DNA of 64,000 bases from Candidatus Poribacteria bacterium. GTDB taxonomy: Bacteria > Poribacteria > WGA-4E > WGA-3G. The translations under genes were made by a program, and so were the position numbers. Of this stretch, positions 41,236 through 51,444 are shown one piece after another. The DNA is taken from contig CBDANF010000003.1 of assembly GCA_965197475.1 (NCBI GenBank), positions 2,679,223 to 2,743,222 of the forward strand, written 5' to 3'. Each line of letters opens with the position of its first letter. The stretch's first letter is position 1. Under the pieces are notes generated by a model. It was not told the origin of the DNA, did not search any database, and saw nothing but the letters and a program-made list of their open reading frames with translations.

Positions 41236-43349
41236 TCAGTTTCCAACTCCTCTAACATCTTATCAATTTTACGAAACTGCCAACCCCATCGTGTATTATA
41301 TAAGAATTGTCGTAGGTCAAATCGGTTGTCATCAGGCGAATAGGGTTCGGCGTGGTATGCAGGGGTTAATGTCGTCATCTTATGCCGATTAATAGCGTAG
41401 TAGCGGAAAAACCTTTTGACCTTCTCTGCTACTTCACCGGCAGGTAGATGATTCCATTCCTGAACAAGTTTTTCAAACATACTGACAGGACCACACCGAT
41501 GCACTTTTCGGAGCTGTCCGAAACGACTCAACTCGGTGTATGTCATTCCCATATCTTCTTCATCGGTTTGAGTGTAGGTCTCAGTGATAGGTTCTAATTC
41601 AGCAGTTGGCGGTGCCTCAAGGATAGTGCCGAGGCTTGGATAACCGAGATGCTCCGCTGCCCAGCGCAGAAAACTACGTAGATCCGTTTTGCTGATACTT
41701 CCAATCGGATTGATGTCGGCACTACTACAATCATATTTCGTCAGATAACCACGCAACGCCTCGTCAACATTACCTGTGCCTAAGACAAGAAGCGTGCCGC
41801 GCCTATTACGAACCCACGGCAACGTCTGTGCAAAAAGATAACTGATGACCATCCGCAGACGCGCCTGTATGTTTTGAAGTGCCTGATTCTCTATCGTGCT
41901 TCCGCCTTCGGTCTTGAACTGAGGCGTTTTGCCGGTTATACCAAAAAACAGTTTTCGCAAAGCACCCACAAGGGACTCCATGTTGATATCAAGATGATAG
42001 CTTCCAATTTCACTCGCCAACTGTTTTGCGCGATGCCGTGTTTCACGAGAACTGTTTGCTGTCCCTATGTAGCAAGTATAGAGCAGCTGATTTGCAATAT
42101 ATTGCGCTGCGGGCTGCGGATCACTAAAATCGGTTTTGATTTTTTCTACACATTCGGCACCAAGCAACGTTTCTGCATCACGGATAACGTGCGGCATATC
42201 AGCAAGAATCGCTTTTGCAACGAGTTGACACATAGAACCGACAAGCGTCGCAACAGCACCGCTATCCGAACCGCCCGAAAGCGGAACGAAAAAGCCTGCT
42301 GCTTCGGAACGCCTCAGATAATCCCAAAGCCAACATGCCGGACCAAGCGCAATCTCTTCTTCAGGCGTGTGAATGTTGAGGTCAACCTTCGGAACGGTGA
42401 CAGAACGTTTTTCAACATCTGTCACCTTAAAATCAGCATAAATTTGCGGAATAGAAACCCCATGACTTGCCTGCACTGCTCCACTCATTCTTGAACCGCG
42501 ATAGGATCGCACATCCCGTAAATCAACAGTCGCTGTGACAACTTCAACATCATTGATAGAAAATTGTGAGCCTTGTGTGAGGATGTGTCCGTTTTGCGCT
42601 ATCGTTGCGCAACCATCGAAATAGAGCCTGCCACCATCACAGCCCTGCTGATTCGCATAAAGGTAAACCCCGCCACATTTTTCTGTCGCATTTCGAATCA
42701 GCGATAGACGCGTATCAAGTTTGCGAAGTTCGTGATGTGAACCCGATCCATTGGCAATTATCTCAACGCCGTTATATGCAAGATCAATATGCGGGGAGTG
42801 CGGTGCAAACAACTCTTCACAGGTTTCCGATGCCAAAACTGTATCGTGTGTCACAATGACGGCGCACCCTATCGGCACAGTACGATTCGGTGTGATTTCG
42901 AGGATCTCAGGCGGCACCTGAAAAGGTTCCGTTGTCCATCCTTTTTGCCATGCGGTAAACCAACGTGGCTCCCGATAGTTCCCTTCAGCAGCAAGCACCA
43001 ATTTTGGACGAATTAGAAGAATCTTCCCATCACAGACAAACACGCGGCAGTTGTAACGCACACTTTTGTGCATGACCGGCATCCCAATATCGCACAAGAT
43101 ACCGTTGGTATGCCCACCGATTATGATCCGTGCCAGGGATTCCCAACTATGACGTAACGTATCTTCTTCAAGGAAATGATCTTCACATGAATAACCCGTT
43201 ATCTCAAGTTCAGGACCGAGCCGATAGCGCGCTCCTGTCGCTTTAGCACGTTCAATCGATTCAATGATGCGATCACAATTTCCCTCAAAGTCAAGTGCCC
43301 ACTGATTCAGGTTGCACGTTGCAAGTGTTGTTTTCATATTTTTACACAA
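41232..43349 (-). CDS. nadE: Glutamine-dependent NAD+ synthetase, long (eukaryote-like) form
   Basis: The 705-aa ORF has an N-terminal nitrilase/CN-hydrolase domain ([16 protein letters not shown]...PELEITGY). The C-terminal PP-loop synthetase has SGGSDS. The start is either 43349 or the MKTT Met at 43335-43337. Confidence 0.9.
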
Positions 43350-43459
43350 TTAGTAGTTTTGCGATTAAACCTTAACAAAAATCCCTTGCTTTTTCTTTTT
43401 TAGCATTTTTATTTGACATTTTGACAATTTTTGTGGTATCATATTTATGTTCAGAGTAA

Positions 43460-45145: not shown

Positions 45146-45311
45146 AGATACACCTCATACCATATCTGTAGCAAAATCAAAAAATTTACCTATCATTTTC
45201 CTCGTAATTTGTGATTTTAAATTTTAATTATTTTAGCATGAGTTCTAAATAAGCATTCAAGCGTAAGGTAGAATACCAAATCAACACACGTTGTAAGCAT
45301 GTTTAGTCTAT

Positions 45312-45462
45312 CGCTCCAGCGGAGCGAAATGTTTATAGAAAAGAGTTAGTTCTTTCTTCCGCTCCAGCGGAGCGGTATGTGGTGTCATTACACATAGCAC
45401 TCCGCTGGAGTGCTATAACTTGGAATCACGTTTTCTATAGACATAGCACTCCGCTGGAGTGC
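45312..45462. repeat. REP family 3 cluster: four GC hairpins (cgctccagcggagcg and its complement)
   Basis: Hairpins lie at 45312-45326, 45359-45375, 45396-45414 and 45446-45462. Two are in each orientation, spaced by ...aaatgtttatagaaaag... Confidence 0.85.
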
Positions 45463-45878
45463 GGAAAAAGATTTGTTACCAATATGAATCGTGTCGGGTA
45501 CCTCTAAATCCTTAAAGTTGAACCCACGTTATCTTGGATTTCGGGTGCTGTATGAAATTAGGCTATGTCTGCGTTTTTTATCTGTATATTCGCCTGTAAA
45601 CTTTATAGCTGCGCCACCGACAAATTCTTTTGATGCCTTATGAATAATATCGCGTGACGGGCTATGAACTTGAACGATACCAGATATAAGCTGAGTTGTA
45701 TTCTCACAAATTTCAGGTTTAACGATAAATAACCATTGGTTTGGATATTTCTCAACATTTCTTTGACCGTTAGCCGCTTATTATCCACTGCAAAACTCAT
45801 AGTTATCTCCTATTATAACCCAAGTTGCTACCTTTTGAAAATCAATCAATTCCCTTATCGTTAGGGTGTTTAATCTTT

Positions 45879-45942
45879 CGCTCCAGCGGAGCGAAATGTT
45901 TATAGAAAAAGTGAGTCCTTATCCTCCGCTCCAGCGGAGCGG
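45879..45942. repeat. REP family 3 cluster (two hairpins)
   Basis: cgctccagcggagcgaaatgtttatagaaaaag...ccgctccagcggagcggtatgt is the same ~65-bp module as 45312-45380. Confidence 0.85.
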
Positions 45943-46088
45943 TATGTCCAGTAACTGTGAGTAGCACTTATCTGAAAATTCTGTGTAGATGACATTTTCA
46001 TGTTATAGGTGGCAACTTGGGTTATTATACAATAAAAATACGCAATTAGTAGTTTTGGACATGATAAAATTTGATAATTTTAGTGTAT

Positions 46089-47114
46089 TTATGACAGTAA
46101 TTCATTTATTGTTATTAATTGGGGATTAAATTTTTCGAAACCCAATGGTGTAAGTTTTAATTTATTCATATATTCATAGTTTATATTTTTGCATATTTCT
46201 ATTAAGTCTTTATCGTCTGAAGCAAAAATATCACAGAATGGCAAGTGTAATATGTATCTTATATCTCTTGTAAAATTTGTGCCTTTAGTTTGTATGATAA
46301 ATTTGCATTTTTCTATATTGAAATACAGAAAATATATATAGTAGCAGAAAAAAGTATAAGGGTATCTTTGGCTTATTTTTATGTTGTTGTTAATTGTTTC
46401 TTTTATCTCTTGTGTTTCTTTTTCTGTTAGTTTTGCGATTGGTGCTATTGCATTAATGCTGTTTGTTGTATTTCTGTTAAAAATAGTTTCTATGTCTATT
46501 ATTAATGCATGAAACATTTTTTGCATTATTTCTTTTTTAAATTTCTTATCATTGTTTTTGATATTGTCCCTAATAAATTTTATCAAATCATTATTTATAT
46601 TTTCATCGCCGTATTTTAATAAGTATTTTTGTAGTTTTTCAATATACCTTTTTTGATTTATGCGTGGGTCTCCTAATTGGCCTATTATTTCAGCAAATTC
46701 AATTATATAATTAGAGGCTTGATTGTTTTCGAAAAACTTTTTTAAAATTTCAAATATCTTTTCTTCTTCTTCAAATTGTTGTTTGGCATACTGGTTCAGG
46801 TTTTTGATTTCACGTTTTAAATCTTCTGTTTCACCTATTTGGGCATAAGTCATTTTCGTTATCGGTATATTTTCTATAATTTCTTTTTTTATTATTTCTG
46901 GTGTTGTATCATAACATACATGGTATTCTAATCTTATTTTTGATTGAATAAATTCATCTATTTTTTCTTTGCCATATTTTATTGATCCTATTAATAATTC
47001 AAAACTCAGTATAGGACTATACCTAATATCATATAACGAATGTAAAAAACTAATTTCTTCTTGTTTTAGTGTTTGTAGCGACGATTTGTCTAATAGTAGT
47101 ATTTGTTTTCTCAT
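46089..47114 (-). CDS. AT-rich hypothetical protein, possible split PIN-like nuclease with a long helical insert
   Basis: I place the start at ATG 47112-47114 (MRKQILLLDKSS...), 4 nt after the MTase stop, rather than the overlapping track start at 47252. The N-terminus ILLLDKSSL...SFELL and C-terminus LHLPFCDIFASDDKDL resemble the first and last acidic PIN motifs, a low-confidence reading. A 60-nt spot count gave about 18% GC. Confidence 0.5.
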   Translation of the reverse strand: MRKQILLLDKSSLQTLKQEEISFLHSLYDIRYSPILSFELLIGSIKYGKEKIDEFIQSKIRLEYHVCYDTTPEIIKKEIIENIPITKMTYAQIGETEDLKREIKNLNQYAKQQFEEEEKIFEILKKFFENNQASNYIIEFAEIIGQLGDPRINQKRYIEKLQKYLLKYGDENINNDLIKFIRDNIKNNDKKFKKEIMQKMFHALIIDIETIFNRNTTNSINAIAPIAKLTEKETQEIKETINNNIKISQRYPYTFFCYYIYFLYFNIEKCKFIIQTKGTNFTRDIRYILHLPFCDIFASDDKDLIEICKNINYEYMNKLKLTPLGFEKFNPQLITINELLS

Positions 47115-47118
47115 GTGA

Positions 47119-48483
47119 TTACAACACTCCTTGCTCTTTAAGTTTAGCAATAAGTTCTGCCTGCGTTCCAGTGCCTTTAGTAGAATTACAAGCCCCACAG
47201 AGAAGTTGCAAGTTATCCTTGTGGTCTGTGCCACCGTGTTTTTGTGGGACAATATGATCTACAGTCAAATTACGGAATGGAAAATGAGTTCGGCAGCCAT
47301 TGCAGACACCTTCCTGTTTACCATAAAGTGTGTGTTTGTGGGTTTGGTAATTAGGCAATTTCTCACTGCGCTTGGGTATATCGGTTCGGTGTGTTACATC
47401 ATAAAACATTCCAAGTTCTTTCTTAAGACGCATTTTGACAAGTTCTACGGCTTTTTCTGATATATCAATACCGATCCACTGACGGTTTAGACGCTCTGCT
47501 GCCACGCAGGTTGTTGCACAACCGCAGAAGGGGTCTAATACCATATCACCTTCTTTTGATGATGCCTTGATTATCCGTTCTAATAATGCTAATGGTTTTT
47601 GTGTGGGGTAGCCTGTTTTTTCGTTTCCTAATACTGGCTGTATATCTGTCCATAAATTATTTGCTGGCATTCCTTCCTTTAAACGGTGTTTACGATATAC
47701 TTTTCCGTTGGCAAAATCAAGTTCACCTTCTTCATCTAATTTTTGTAGTGTTGATTTTTTTACAGTCCATCCGCTTGGGTTTGGCGGATAAAATCCTTTA
47801 TATTCATAGCAAAGATTTGGACGCTCTCCTAATCCAGGAGGTCTGAATGGATTTCGTCTTTCATATTTTCCTTTTTCATCTTTAAATTTGAATTTTTTTA
47901 GATATTCTTCACTGAATGGAATAAGGTCTGAATTTATATCAAATTTACTATTATGATATGCGTAATATAGAATTTGGTCTGTTGACGTGCCGTATGATTT
48001 TTCTTTATACTGTGTTGTTTTACCTGCTCCCTGTATGCGTTGCCAAACAATTTCATTTCTAAAGTTTTCTTTACCAAAAACACTATCCATAAGAATTTTT
48101 AGATAGTGACTTGCTGTTGGATCACAATGAAGGTATATACTTCCTGTATCTTTCAAAACACGTTTCATCTCAAGCAGGCGGATTGACATCATTATTAGAT
48201 ATGATTTCATTCCCTTTCCGTGTGTTATTTCTGATGTCTGTATTGCCTGATATAAAGCGGGTTCACGGTCTGCGATTTCGCCGTGCCAAGCATTGTCAAC
48301 GTCTGATAGTGTCCACGTATCCTTAAACGCTGCACCAGCAGCTTCACTGCCAATTGGAGCTGCGTAATTTCGGTTGGAATTGAAAGGTGGATCAAGGTAT
48401 ATTAGATCTGCGGACTGGGTGTCCAAACCACGCAATATATGTAAATTATCATTACTAAAGATTGTACGATTATTAACATTCAT
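47119..48483 (-). CDS. DNA methyltransferase (beta-class N6A/N4C, PF01555-like) fused to a C-terminal HNH nuclease motif
   Basis: The 454-aa ORF has motif IV LIYLDPPFNSNRNY near the N-terminus and motif I VLDPFCGCATTCVAAE later. The C-terminus CNGCRTHF..LTVDHIVPQKHGGTDHKDNLQLLCGACNSTKG is a complete CxxC..H..N..H..CxxC HNH finger. Confidence 0.85.
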   Translation of the reverse strand: MNVNNRTIFSNDNLHILRGLDTQSADLIYLDPPFNSNRNYAAPIGSEAAGAAFKDTWTLSDVDNAWHGEIADREPALYQAIQTSEITHGKGMKSYLIMMSIRLLEMKRVLKDTGSIYLHCDPTASHYLKILMDSVFGKENFRNEIVWQRIQGAGKTTQYKEKSYGTSTDQILYYAYHNSKFDINSDLIPFSEEYLKKFKFKDEKGKYERRNPFRPPGLGERPNLCYEYKGFYPPNPSGWTVKKSTLQKLDEEGELDFANGKVYRKHRLKEGMPANNLWTDIQPVLGNEKTGYPTQKPLALLERIIKASSKEGDMVLDPFCGCATTCVAAERLNRQWIGIDISEKAVELVKMRLKKELGMFYDVTHRTDIPKRSEKLPNYQTHKHTLYGKQEGVCNGCRTHFPFRNLTVDHIVPQKHGGTDHKDNLQLLCGACNSTKGTGTQAELIAKLKEQGVL

Positions 48484-48540
48484 TTATTATTTCCTGATAA
48501 GAAATTTCCAAAACATAACGGACATAACAATAGCCACACC

Positions 48541-51444
48541 TCACTCAACCGAAACCGCAATTGGCTGATACCCAAAAACAGCTTTTCCATTGCTCATTAA
48601 CGGCGATTCACTGCCAGGGTCAGTAATATCAACCGTCCAGAGTTGTCCGTTATTTTCATAGAGTATCCAGCGTCCGTTCGGTGGCACCCAGACGGGACGA
48701 CTACCGCCCATCTCAGTTATTTTTTCCTCTGTGGGTTGACCGGTATCGGAAAAAGTAACTATCCAAATTTGACGGGAGTTTTCACCTGTCCCGCGTGAAA
48801 AAGCGAGGATATTTTGGTCAGCAGGATGCCAAGCGGGTTCCGCATCATCTGCCGGGGAGATAACGATCGACTCAACACTGTTTGTTACATGGTCAAAGGC
48901 ATAGATGTTACGGTTTTCCCCAACTTGCGGATTTTCAATTGTTCCCACAGTCGCATAAGCAAGCAGCTGTCCATCTCTGCGCCATGCCGGATTAGTCATT
49001 TCACGGGCTGTTGAAGGAATTCGGAAAATCTCTTCGCTCCGTAGATGTTGGATAAGGATCCGTTTACGGCCGCTTGGCTCCGTATGTGAATATGCAAGAT
49101 ATTCACCATCGGCGGAGATCGTGACATCTTCCGCAAGATGCCGATTATCAAGAAAGACCATGCTTTTTCCCGTAGCAATATCTTTGAGAATGACATTGTC
49201 ATCAAAATCATGGTAAACAAGTGTCCCATTTTCCGATGCAGAGGGGCGAAAACCCGCACCGAGCGGTGCAACCCGTGTGTCAACTACTACGGAAGACTCA
49301 TCGCCTGCTTCAGCATCAACTGCGCGGTCAGCTGCCGTAGCCGGAGCTATCCGCCATAAAACGCCATCATGGCTATAATAGATAAACACAGACTCTGCAG
49401 CAAGCGAAAACCCATCTACACTCAAACCTTGGAGTAGTCCCTCGTTAGTCTCAGTCTTATTGTCCTTTCCATCCTCTTCAGGCGTTTCTGTAGCTTTAAG
49501 AATATTCGCTGTGTTCGGTTCAAATTTGTCGCTGTTTTTCAGTTTCCAACCAGCACCATCCGCCTCAAAGTGAAACGCTAAGCCTCTTGTCCAATACATC
49601 CACTCTTCAATCATTTTTCCATTCCGTGTGTATTTGAAAATATCCTCAGGTTCCCCATACATCCGTGCGATATTCCACCGTCCACCATCTGAGAGTTCAG
49701 CCATTGTGCCTTTCTCATCAACATAAGACGCTAAAATGTCAATATCCACATGTGGTGTTGTTTTGCCGGAAAACACGGTGATAGCAGCTGGAGTGCCGCG
49801 CACTGGTTGATGTGTGCCGTAAATCCCGATTCCGTCCGATGTTCCTGAGCGTGCATCACCGTTTTGGTCAACGATTGCCATGACATAGTATTTGCCGGGT
49901 TTCACGTCAACAAGGTATGTGCCATCTTCGTCAAGAAAAAGCGGCATCCACATCGGTGAACTGAAGTCCGGTGTCGTAGACAGACTCAAAATACCATCCG
50001 GGACAGGTGCCTCATTCTCCGATGTAACGTTTTTATTTGCTGCTTTAGTAGTACGCGAGGACAAAAATGACGTGATTTTGCCAGTGATACTCCCCATCTG
50101 TTCCTCTGAAGGTATTCCGGCGGTTGGATTCGATCCGAGATCAACGGTAGAACGCGTGTTTTCTAAATTGGATAATGCAACAAGCTGCCCATCCGCATCA
50201 TAATGTGCGCTCATCCGAATGTAAACGGCACGCGTTTTCCCCTCATCAACGGTTAACAAAGCAGGTGGTATTGTCGCAATTGCGTCTGTTCCAAAACCGC
50301 CAAGACTATCACCTACGCTGTACTTGCCGTCTCCATCCACGTCATGATTCGCGATAAAATAGTACTCACCTGGCGGTAATTGGAGACAATACTGCCCTTC
50401 TGCATCTGTTTTGGTTATCACAATAGGATTCACCAACGCAGAAGTAGGGTATACTTCAACCCGAACCGCTGTACCCGTTTGTGGAATTGGCATTATACGA
50501 CCAGAAACAATCGCAGTGCTTTCCTGAATTTTCGTTTGATGTTTCGCAGTATAGGTGGCAGAAACCAGGATCTCTAAATCCTCAGTAAATGCGTTAGGTT
50601 TAATCAACACAGGTTCTGGAAAGGCACCACGTTTATGAATATCTGTAACGCCATAAAAGCCGAACGTGTCCCCTACGTCAAGTTTGTTACTGGAATTCTT
50701 ATCAACAATCGCCATCAGATAGTATTTACCCGGTTTCAATCGAAGTTCCCACGCACCGGTTTTGGTATCAACAACAGCAATCCCAGCCCGATATTTCCAT
50801 GACGTGTCTGTATACGCAAGGATAAGCCGTTGGACTTCAGTACCTACCGCTTTTTCAGTATATTTCAGTATGCCTTGACAACCTGATGTCGCTTGGGTTA
50901 ACTCGCTCTTGAATCGTCGGTACTCACTTGGTCGGTATGTGGAAGCAGCAACCAGTTTGAGTTCATCCCCTGTCCGTTGCAGACGAGCCGTAATCGGAAT
51001 CTTTATCCCCTTCAATTGTGTGTTTGAACCGATATCGACCGCCTGATGTTTTTGCGCTTTATTTTGCCAATCTTTTACTCCCAAGACACCGTAAGCATCT
51101 CCCTCGTCAAATTTGCCGGAACCATCAACATCAATATAAGCAACTAAATAATACCTACCCGGTTCCACACGGAGTGTGAATGTCCCTGTTTTCAAACGGG
51201 ATACACCACTAGTATAAAGGTCTTTGAGTTTTTCATCGCGATATACCGACACATTTGTTTGTGAAAGGTCCTGTCCCTCCCAAATAATCTCTCCGGACAG
51301 TGTCGCTGTCATACGTTTGATTGAAGATTCGGGGTTAGCAGAACCAGGTGGAAACGCCTGATTTGACGATTGTTGTGCATAGAGTAACAGATTCCCGATT
51401 AATCCGATGCCAATAATAAGTGTAAAAAATGCCAATCGTTTCAT
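48541..51444 (-). CDS. Secreted protein: four DUF2141-like beta-sandwich repeats plus C-terminal TolB/PD40-type beta-propeller
   Basis: The 967-aa ORF has a signal peptide. A fourfold repeat is visible: G(R/K/E)YY(L/F/V)xAxxDxxGxGKxDxGDxxGxxG. The C-terminus carries PD40-like repeats (ISADGEYLAYSH, PAWRRDGQLLAYAT, EPAWHPADQNILAFS, RPVWVPPNGRWILY). Confidence 0.75.
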   Translation of the reverse strand: MKRLAFFTLIIGIGLIGNLLLYAQQSSNQAFPPGSANPESSIKRMTATLSGEIIWEGQDLSQTNVSVYRDEKLKDLYTSGVSRLKTGTFTLRVEPGRYYLVAYIDVDGSGKFDEGDAYGVLGVKDWQNKAQKHQAVDIGSNTQLKGIKIPITARLQRTGDELKLVAASTYRPSEYRRFKSELTQATSGCQGILKYTEKAVGTEVQRLILAYTDTSWKYRAGIAVVDTKTGAWELRLKPGKYYLMAIVDKNSSNKLDVGDTFGFYGVTDIHKRGAFPEPVLIKPNAFTEDLEILVSATYTAKHQTKIQESTAIVSGRIMPIPQTGTAVRVEVYPTSALVNPIVITKTDAEGQYCLQLPPGEYYFIANHDVDGDGKYSVGDSLGGFGTDAIATIPPALLTVDEGKTRAVYIRMSAHYDADGQLVALSNLENTRSTVDLGSNPTAGIPSEEQMGSITGKITSFLSSRTTKAANKNVTSENEAPVPDGILSLSTTPDFSSPMWMPLFLDEDGTYLVDVKPGKYYVMAIVDQNGDARSGTSDGIGIYGTHQPVRGTPAAITVFSGKTTPHVDIDILASYVDEKGTMAELSDGGRWNIARMYGEPEDIFKYTRNGKMIEEWMYWTRGLAFHFEADGAGWKLKNSDKFEPNTANILKATETPEEDGKDNKTETNEGLLQGLSVDGFSLAAESVFIYYSHDGVLWRIAPATAADRAVDAEAGDESSVVVDTRVAPLGAGFRPSASENGTLVYHDFDDNVILKDIATGKSMVFLDNRHLAEDVTISADGEYLAYSHTEPSGRKRILIQHLRSEEIFRIPSTAREMTNPAWRRDGQLLAYATVGTIENPQVGENRNIYAFDHVTNSVESIVISPADDAEPAWHPADQNILAFSRGTGENSRQIWIVTFSDTGQPTEEKITEMGGSRPVWVPPNGRWILYENNGQLWTVDITDPGSESPLMSNGKAVFGYQPIAVSVE

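Follow-up and report, generated by a model that had tools for sequence, protein, structure and literature searches.

A methyltransferase-HNH fusion gene and the variable gene position behind it in a Candidatus Poribacteria genome

The 64,000-nucleotide stretch of DNA analysed here (the window) corresponds to C3:2679223-2743222 of a 5.7-Mb Candidatus Poribacteria genome of the metagenome-assembled genome (MAG) type, Poribacteria being sponge-symbiont-type bacteria. Between two housekeeping genes of 967 and 437 aa, the window holds an accessory island of approximately 3.4 kb (45146-48540, minus strand), in which a 454-aa fusion of a methyltransferase (MTase) with an HNH domain (MTase-HNH; 47119-48483, minus strand) is followed by an unannotated open reading frame (ORF) of 341 aa, designated ORF2 (46089-47114, minus strand), and by the right end of an IS1595-family insertion sequence (IS). 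In related genomes the position directly behind MTase-HNH is occupied by a range of other genes. This variable position and the ORF2 family are new findings of the present analysis; an earlier examination of the DNA letters without database searches (the sequence-only reading) had described the two genes as a candidate unconventional restriction-modification (R-M) or defence pair and had missed both the IS1595 end and the variable cargo slot.

As that reading had proposed, MTase-HNH joins a complete beta-class methyltransferase to a C-terminal HNH domain. The protein matches PF01555 (N6_N4_Mtase; residues 26-350, 1.7e-45, 156 bits with a cut-off of 26.7), PF01844 (HNH; residues 394-438, 2.7e-13, 50.3 bits with a cut-off of 21.4) and the PADLOC MTase_II model (1.4e-62). 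DPPF (motif IV, residue 31) lies ahead of DPFCGCATT (motif I, residue 317), which is the beta-class order, and the HNH nuclease domain, delimited by its profile match and motif residues (47170-47304, minus strand), keeps the zinc ligands C394, C397, C429 and C432 together with D409-H410, N424 and N433. The HNH motif is retained in nine of nine aligned MTase-HNH copies, and the domain matches the HNH of PDB entry 4h9d and that of Cas9. Judged from these residues, both active sites look intact. The best sequence matches of the methyltransferase part are EcoP15I Mod (4zcf), Helicobacter pylori Mod (6k0w), CcrM (6pbd) and MboIIA (1g60). PADLOC recognised this part through its generic MTase_II/III models only, and the sequence-only reading had assigned the pair to no named system.

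More than 8000 homologues were scored, nearly all of them with an HNH domain, and the best 120 share 60-84% identity; several homologues are labelled Poribacteria. In the present genome N6_N4 matches number approximately 60 and MTase-HNH genes at least six, most of the latter alone amid housekeeping genes; MTase-HNH genes account for approximately 0.1% of genes. Alignment of nine copies revealed that the N-terminus, the motif-I region and the HNH domain are 75-95% identical, while identity falls to 18-50% over residues ~150-285 (47629-48036, minus strand), the presumed target-recognition domain. In this middle part the window gene differs from its syntenic orthologue on a metagenomic contig (L001) and matches, at 78-90%, a solitary copy at another locus (L005). 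Such exchange of the recognition domain with retention of both active sites is expected of a restriction-modification specificity module and not of a regulatory orphan methylase. The sequence-only reading had also considered that the fusion might prove to be a well-characterised phage or orphan methylase with a non-catalytic HNH, which, as far as its sequence tells, it is not: phage relatives are plain methylases with approximately 40% identity over residues 8-371 and carry no HNH, and the HNH motif of the fusion is intact. Literature searches on MTase-HNH fusions yielded nothing specific.

Some variants of these genes were noted elsewhere. The MTase-HNH closest to that of the window (L104:3371-4734, genome G088), which shares its recognition middle and is 94-96% identical to it in amino acids, is broken into ORFs of 240 and 183 aa by an apparent frameshift, possibly an assembly error, and the gene downstream of it, of the PIN-like superfamily discussed below, is intact. 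In genome G080 the start of MTase-HNH shares 4 nt with a 153-aa ORF (L103:2499-2957) that resembles, by eye, the 148-151-aa ORFs located downstream of MTase-HNH in L075, L077 and L080, a likeness suggesting that accessory genes may occur on either side of MTase-HNH. At L064 (G000:C2:263128-265900) an N6_N4 methyltransferase gene is bordered or disrupted by an IS1595 copy, and its ORF starts inside the right end of the IS.

MTase-HNH starts 57 nt from the end of the 967-aa gene, which had correctly been said to abut the high-coordinate boundary of the island. At the junction with ORF2 (47115-47132, minus strand), read from the sequence as ...GAGCAAGGAGTGTTGTAATCACATG, the stop codon TAA (47121-47119) and a 4-nt spacer precede the ATG at 47114; the reported 4-nt distance therefore holds, and the length of ORF2 is 341 aa and not 342 aa as first given. 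A Shine-Dalgarno-like AAGGAG lies within the MTase 3' end, 12 nt ahead of the ORF2 ATG, and a scan for promoters and terminators gave nothing better than shuffled sequence. With a ribosome-binding site lying inside the MTase 3' end and too little space for a terminator, ORF2 would be read from the MTase-HNH transcript. The island as a whole had been described as very AT-rich, which is true of ORF2 (24.8% GC; 21% at third codon positions; 22.7-26.7% in 300-nt windows), whereas MTase-HNH has 38.5% GC (33% in the recognition middle and 41-43% in the catalytic ends) and the neighbouring genes 44-47%. The extreme AT-richness is thus confined essentially to ORF2.

The variable position behind MTase-HNH and its IS1595 end

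The site between the 967-aa and 437-aa genes was surveyed in 29 other genomes of the genus. It is empty in approximately 14, in which the two flanking genes are 10-460 nt apart; one genome holds only a 29-aa MTase remnant, and at least 10 carry MTase-HNH followed, directly after its stop codon, by something other than ORF2 or by nothing. The occupants of the slot are AT-rich and comprise a 339-aa DUF2971 protein followed by an IS end (G080), a 350-aa protein distantly related to ORF2 within its superfamily (L073 in G088; hhalign probability 96%, E 4e-9), a 214-aa DUF4238 protein (G104), a 329-aa TIR-domain protein followed by an IS end (G089), ORFs of 148-151 aa in three genomes, one with a 146-aa partner, which show a weak match to PADLOC PDC-M32A, and a 157-aa ORF in two genomes, with an IS end in one of them. 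No gene directly follows the MTase-HNH stop in G081 and L085. The gap to that stop is 0-4 nt for four different cargo types. DUF4238 genes follow MTase-HNH of two subfamilies, the first in the slot and the second at L066 in the present genome, where MTase-HNH is flanked by a left IS1595 end and a degenerate right end and the DUF4238 gene comes directly after it. Assignments that were tried and discarded are a DUF2971 identity for the neighbour in L013, which BLASTP did not confirm, and homology between the 148-aa ORFs of L007 and L080, which are unrelated.

TIR domains are well-known defence effectors. A DUF4238 protein and DUF2971 ('Aristaios') have been experimentally shown to be single-gene antiphage proteins (bioRxiv 10.1101/2021.01.21.427644; PMC11381338). 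Two slot occupants thus belong to families with demonstrated antiphage activity, which supports, by association, a similar role for the unannotated occupants, among them the ORF2 superfamily with its approximately 100 divergent members across phyla.

In the window, the slot ends in an IS1595-family right-end terminal inverted repeat (46041-46058, minus strand; CCAAAACTACTAATTGCG, the full repeat of approximately 24 nt reading TCATGTCC...), which lies 30 nt past the ORF2 stop and is oriented with ORF2 inside. When the flanks of ORF2 genes are aligned, similarity between contexts stops at ...CCAAAACTACTAATTGCG, 22-70 nt past the stop codon. This 18-mer has 87 copies in the genome, as against 0-1 for a control, and these form mostly inverted pairs 1.1-2.5 kb apart that enclose a transposase (PF12762, 1.6e-36; PF12760), often together with small passenger ORFs, and that are flanked by exact 8-bp target duplications. 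The 40 paired copies of the genome fall into size classes of ~1.14, 1.7, 1.97, 2.25-2.3 and 2.4-2.5 kb, the larger of which carry the small passenger ORFs; none of these 40 intact copies carries ORF2.

An IS1595 right end follows ORF2 in six contexts (the window, L001, L019, L021, L022 and L105), and remnants of ORF2 are bracketed by IS1595 ends. In a clade of 358-aa homologues ORF2 lies between two right ends in direct orientation, with a 22-nt leader separating it from the first end and a ~50-nt tail from the second (L105; L021 and L107 show variants of this arrangement). The same right end closes the slot or island in L074, L086/L103, L099, L100 and L001, and a shared right boundary, with the end lying approximately 37-40 nt ahead of the ATG of the 437-aa gene, is seen in L001, L099, L100 and L103. 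The ORF2 unit departs from an IS1595 insertion sequence in having a right end only, with neither a transposase nor a target duplication. A second IS1595-type end (GCAAAACTACTAATTGTG, two mismatches) was noted at 43345-43362, between the start of the NAD synthase gene and the end of the 437-aa gene, with no partner nearby. Elsewhere in the genome, the end in its exact ...CTAATTGCG form is attached to cargo genes (559 aa at C2:14711 and 192 aa at C2:1486185) and not to transposase copies.

Recent horizontal acquisition, which had been suggested on the basis of base composition, was not borne out. The order 956-aa gene, MTase-HNH, ORF2 (4-nt gap), 437-aa gene and NAD synthase on L001 is that of the window, and synonymous divergence (dS) between the two is 0.86 for ORF2 and 0.92-1.05 for the flanking housekeeping genes; this synteny and housekeeping-like dS indicate that the pair was present in the common ancestor of the window genome and L001. 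Homologues of ORF2 have 27-30% GC in every host context, so that AT-richness characterises the gene itself and does not point to recent transfer. The ratio of non-synonymous to synonymous divergence (dN/dS) of ORF2 is 0.22-0.33, which identifies it as a genuine gene under purifying selection. Among nine independent contexts of ORF2, MTase-HNH lies immediately upstream in three, namely window/L001, L021 (with a different HNH subfamily) and L105 (where a 236-aa ORF represents the C-terminal part of MTase-HNH only), and is lacking there in six, and most MTase-HNH genes are without ORF2. Full-length ORF2 occurs in this genome only among 176 species genomes of the phylum, with C-terminal remnants in three others.

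The ORF2 family and its predicted fold

ORF2 is rich in I (15.5%), K (11.4%) and N (7.9%), in line with its first description, and also in E (9.7%), and belongs to an unannotated family with conserved D9, E39, D284, D295 and D301/D303. It has 34 close relatives, none of which is annotated, and approximately 100 distant ones of 300-450 aa that align to it in two stretches, one N-terminal (~1-60) and one C-terminal (~230-320). Across 66 superfamily members at approximately 20% identity, D9, E39 and D284 never vary, conservation of K10, S11 and D301 is at least 90%, and the acidic residues that mark the PIN-like superfamily (D, E, D, D) are present in ORF2 as the tetrad D9/E39/D284/D301.

An AlphaFold model of ORF2, with a predicted local distance difference test (pLDDT) score of 75, shows strand-helix alternation at residues 5-95 and 281-340, separated by a helical block of approximately 185 residues (~96-280) that makes up approximately 55% of the chain and agrees with the long helical insert proposed earlier. 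In the model the first strand precedes D9, E39 is located near the start of the helix following the second strand, D284 falls in the helix preceding the 296-298 strand, and D301 comes after that strand, a placement that, as modelled, is the PIN-like arrangement. The C-terminal motif TRD...LPFCD.F.S.D.D resembles the part of VapC-type proteins made up of the helix, the fourth strand and the acidic turn. PIN nucleases (VapC toxins, SMG6 PIN, PAE2754) likewise have four conserved acidic residues at equivalent places after alternating strands and helices, and FEN-like PIN enzymes provide a precedent for a helical (arch) insert within the fold; unlike these, ORF2 has an insert of ~185 aa, no antitoxin and no significant profile or fold match. 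No antitoxin-sized neighbour, of the kind that defines VapBC-type pairs, was found to be conserved across the nine ORF2 contexts. Rugutis, a 359-aa lactococcal antiphage protein, was considered as a relative and rejected, its SEC-C motif being N-terminal and no other similarity being stated.

Distant members of the superfamily adjoin GmrSD, Type ISP, AbiE, Schlafen and MTase genes, including an N6_N4 MTase in L028. The present genome encodes a distant paralogue of ORF2 (L010, G000:C3:857251-860601; 334 aa, collinear with ORF2 at 19% identity, E 5e-4). The ORF immediately upstream of it, of 171 aa, has motifs that are PD-(D/E)XK-like by eye, and relatives of this paralogue adjoin GmrSD_N and Type_ISP_C genes (L030, L033). 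FRG-domain proteins with TPR repeats (540-610 aa) adjoin ORF2 homologues in L003, L004 and L106, and L003 additionally has Type III-like Res/Mod genes and a second FRG-TPR/MTase pair. In L022 a ParA/CbiA-like ATPase (PADLOC PDC-M28B, 2.3e-9) and a 228-aa RelA_SpoT-domain protein (PDC-S33, 2.3e-6) are encoded (L022:4129-5917) directly upstream of the ORF2 homologue, which may represent a different three-gene arrangement.

Readings of the locus

The reading that we favour, with about an even chance of being correct, is that MTase-HNH is self-contained, that the position behind it is a co-transcribed slot for exchangeable cargo with an IS1595 end as its boundary, and that ORF2, which now fills this slot, is a candidate nuclease effector able to act alone. 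On this reading the island, an old accessory segment between two conserved genes, consists of two separable parts. In the first, the N- and C-terminal halves of MTase-HNH would provide a beta-class, probably N6-adenine, DNA methyltransferase and the middle an exchangeable recognition domain; this one domain would direct both methylation of host DNA and nicking or cutting of unmodified DNA by HNH, in the manner of a one-protein R-M enzyme, a resemblance that rests on domain architecture and recognition-domain swapping. In the second, the cargo slot, the occupant ORF2 would most likely be a Mg2+-dependent nuclease in which a half with D9 and E39 and a half with D284 and D301 assemble a PIN-like site around the helical insert. 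Its role would be that of a single-gene effector of defence or abortive infection that works independently. Cargo may be exchanged by recombination, for which the conserved 3' end of MTase-HNH and the IS1595 end, both present in many copies, would serve as anchors, or alternatively by integration of cargo-plus-end units at an existing IS end.

Each part of this proposal has a counterpart among known systems. The single-chain R-M enzymes of Types IIG, IIC and IIL (MmeI, BpuSI, DrdV) also combine MTase, recognition domain and nuclease in one chain and shift their specificity through swapping or mutation of the recognition domain, but they have an N-terminal PD-(D/E)XK domain and a gamma-class MTase in ~900-1000 aa, whereas MTase-HNH, known from sequence alone, has a beta-class MTase and a C-terminal HNH in 454 aa. 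The beta-class order of motifs is also that of Type III Mod proteins and beta-class Type II MTases, and in mod alleles, too, the central recognition domain can be exchanged; unlike Type III systems, the window locus has no Res helicase-nuclease partner and has a fused HNH instead. If MTase-HNH is a one-protein R-M enzyme, it would represent an unusually compact and abundant class with naturally swappable specificity, with a bearing on enzyme discovery and on the methylase-rich genomes of sponge symbionts.

For the cargo position, IS1595-family elements with passenger genes (the ISPna2+ and ISNwi1+ groups) were reportedly described by Siguier, Gagnevin and Chandler in 2009. The 40 copies in this genome are of this kind, with ~24-nt terminal repeats, 8-bp duplications and, in most, small passenger ORFs, and their repeat is also found at the end of ORF2 and of other slot genes, whereas the ORF2 unit, devoid of transposase and duplication, bears one right end or two in direct orientation. 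P2 and P4 prophages are said by Rousset et al. to have variable defence hotspots, in which, as here, many alternative short defence-type genes occupy one fixed chromosomal position, and slot cassettes resemble IS26 translocatable units and integron attC cassettes in being promoterless, AT-rich and closed by a common short repeat. Here, unlike in those systems, an MTase-HNH gene and an IS1595 end form the anchors, neither an integrase nor an IS26-type transposase takes part, and the mechanism of exchange is a proposal. The tagging of cargo by IS1595 ends suggests a simple route by which insertion-sequence ends could shuffle defence genes, and the slot offers a natural catalogue of candidate single-gene defence effectors. 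A bolder version, which we put forward as speculation and consider rather unlikely, is that IS1595 right ends serve as attachment-like sites through which promoterless AT-rich defence cassettes, each a cargo gene with one end, are captured and exchanged behind MTase-HNH in an integron-like fashion without an integrase; MTase-HNH would provide transcription and perhaps self/non-self marking, and the rotating effectors would include an unrecognised split PIN-like family.

Several results weigh against the favoured reading or parts thereof. No left IS end was found upstream of MTase-HNH or ORF2 at up to four mismatches and no target duplication bounding the ORF2 cassette or the island, which leaves the mechanism of mobility unproven, and the slot genes in L073, L075, L077, L078 and L080 have no recognisable IS end. 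The enzymatic activities are predictions from sequence, and the defence role and the exchange are likewise proposed. For ORF2, searches of Pfam, NCBIfam and PADLOC returned no match (nor did PADLOC-DB v2 for its paralogue), and the 66 superfamily members gave only SEC-C motifs at some C-termini; a PDB profile search gave nothing meaningful, cores of the family spliced to remove the insert matched nothing in Pfam at E values up to 10, Foldseek against PDB and a viral library found no significant match, the PIN domains 2hww and 1v8o appearing only at E 3.6-4.5, and the N-terminal 100 residues folded alone gave a pLDDT of 52, too poor for use. The failure of every search to find a nuclease family or fold, in a protein more than half of which is helical insert, would fit a protein that is largely helical and that binds a ligand or a partner through its conserved acidic residues. 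We regard this explanation as unlikely, in view of a D-E-D-D set that is invariant across relatives at ~20% identity and is placed after predicted strands and at helix starts as in PIN-like enzymes, and of the likeness of the C-terminal motif to VapC-type proteins. That ORF2 is a split PIN-like nuclease is, on a modest balance, likely but not established; the acidic tetrad is compatible with such a nuclease, and the PIN-like ends described in the sequence-only reading remain a motif-level likeness that no database search supports.

A serious rival, possible though on the whole doubtful, is a functional partnership in which MTase-HNH and the slot gene form one system, the former marking or sensing DNA and the latter (PIN-like, TIR, DUF4238, DUF2971 or others) acting as an interchangeable effector. 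Other defence systems with swappable effectors exist. Such a partnership would account for different cargo genes beginning 0-4 nt past the MTase stop, for DUF4238 behind two MTase-HNH subfamilies, for two distant ORF2-superfamily members (one of them in L073) in the same slot, for the superfamily gene beside an N6_N4 MTase in L028 and for ORF2 behind MTase-HNH of two HNH subfamilies in three of nine independent contexts when MTase-HNH makes up so small a fraction of genes. The repeated tight juxtaposition and this last association are what make it a serious rival. Against it stand the six contexts in which ORF2, like its remnants, is solitary, the many MTase-HNH genes with housekeeping neighbours, the single-gene activity of a DUF4238 protein and of DUF2971 elsewhere, and the intact slot gene of L104 beside an apparently frameshifted MTase-HNH; accumulation of cargo at IS ends would also explain adjacency without shared function. 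A narrower partnership, the classical Type II R-M pair with ORF2 as the cognate restriction endonuclease, would agree with the adjacent, co-oriented genes, the 4-nt gap and the conserved acidic tetrad, but is very improbable. The nuclease of such a pair invariably accompanies the MTase and changes along with the specificity of the latter, whereas ORF2 occurs without an adjacent methylase and follows MTase-HNH genes with three different recognition regions: across the window, L001 and L021 the recognition middle is wholly different (18-50% identity), while ORF2 shows 61-66% identity, aligns collinearly and has exchanged no segment. This lack of co-variation argues that ORF2 is not the cognate enzyme, and the methylase already has a nuclease of its own. 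Of the unconventional R-M or defence pair proposed at the outset, the fusion and the defence-like neighbourhoods of ORF2 have therefore stood, and an obligate two-gene pair has not. It is also quite unlikely that ORF2 serves the mobile element, be it as a nuclease or recombination helper for cassettes at IS1595 ends or as a toxin-like addiction gene that stabilises the island. Its consistent link to an IS1595 right end, the direct repeats on both sides in the 358-aa clade, its sporadic distribution with decayed copies and its persistent AT-richness would suit this role, but the intact IS1595 copies of this genome do without ORF2, no antitoxin-sized partner is conserved beside it, and other, unrelated cargo genes bear the same end.

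Remaining features of the island

An 8-bp repeat, TGAGGTGT, present at both island junctions (48536-48543 and 45150-45157), was considered as a target-site duplication and rejected because island-bearing relatives lack TGAGGTGT and the outer ends have no terminal repeats. Repetitive extragenic palindromic (REP) hairpin clusters lie by the low-coordinate boundary, as had been described: cluster 1 (45293-45470, no strand assigned) consists of CGCTCCAGCGGAGCG-type palindromes, and cluster 2 (45860-45968) is surrounded by the inverted arms, with core TATAACCCAAGTTGC.ACC, of a unit resembling a miniature inverted-repeat transposable element (45787-46053, no strand assigned). The ATAACCCAAGTTGC motif of this unit is also present downstream of MTase-HNH in L007. 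Between the two clusters lies a degraded copy of a small gene (45529-45810, minus strand) with 87% nucleotide identity to L085:498-780, and its 65-aa ORF (45603-45800) is the counterpart of an intact 90-aa ORF (L085:508-780) in a relative of the same genus.

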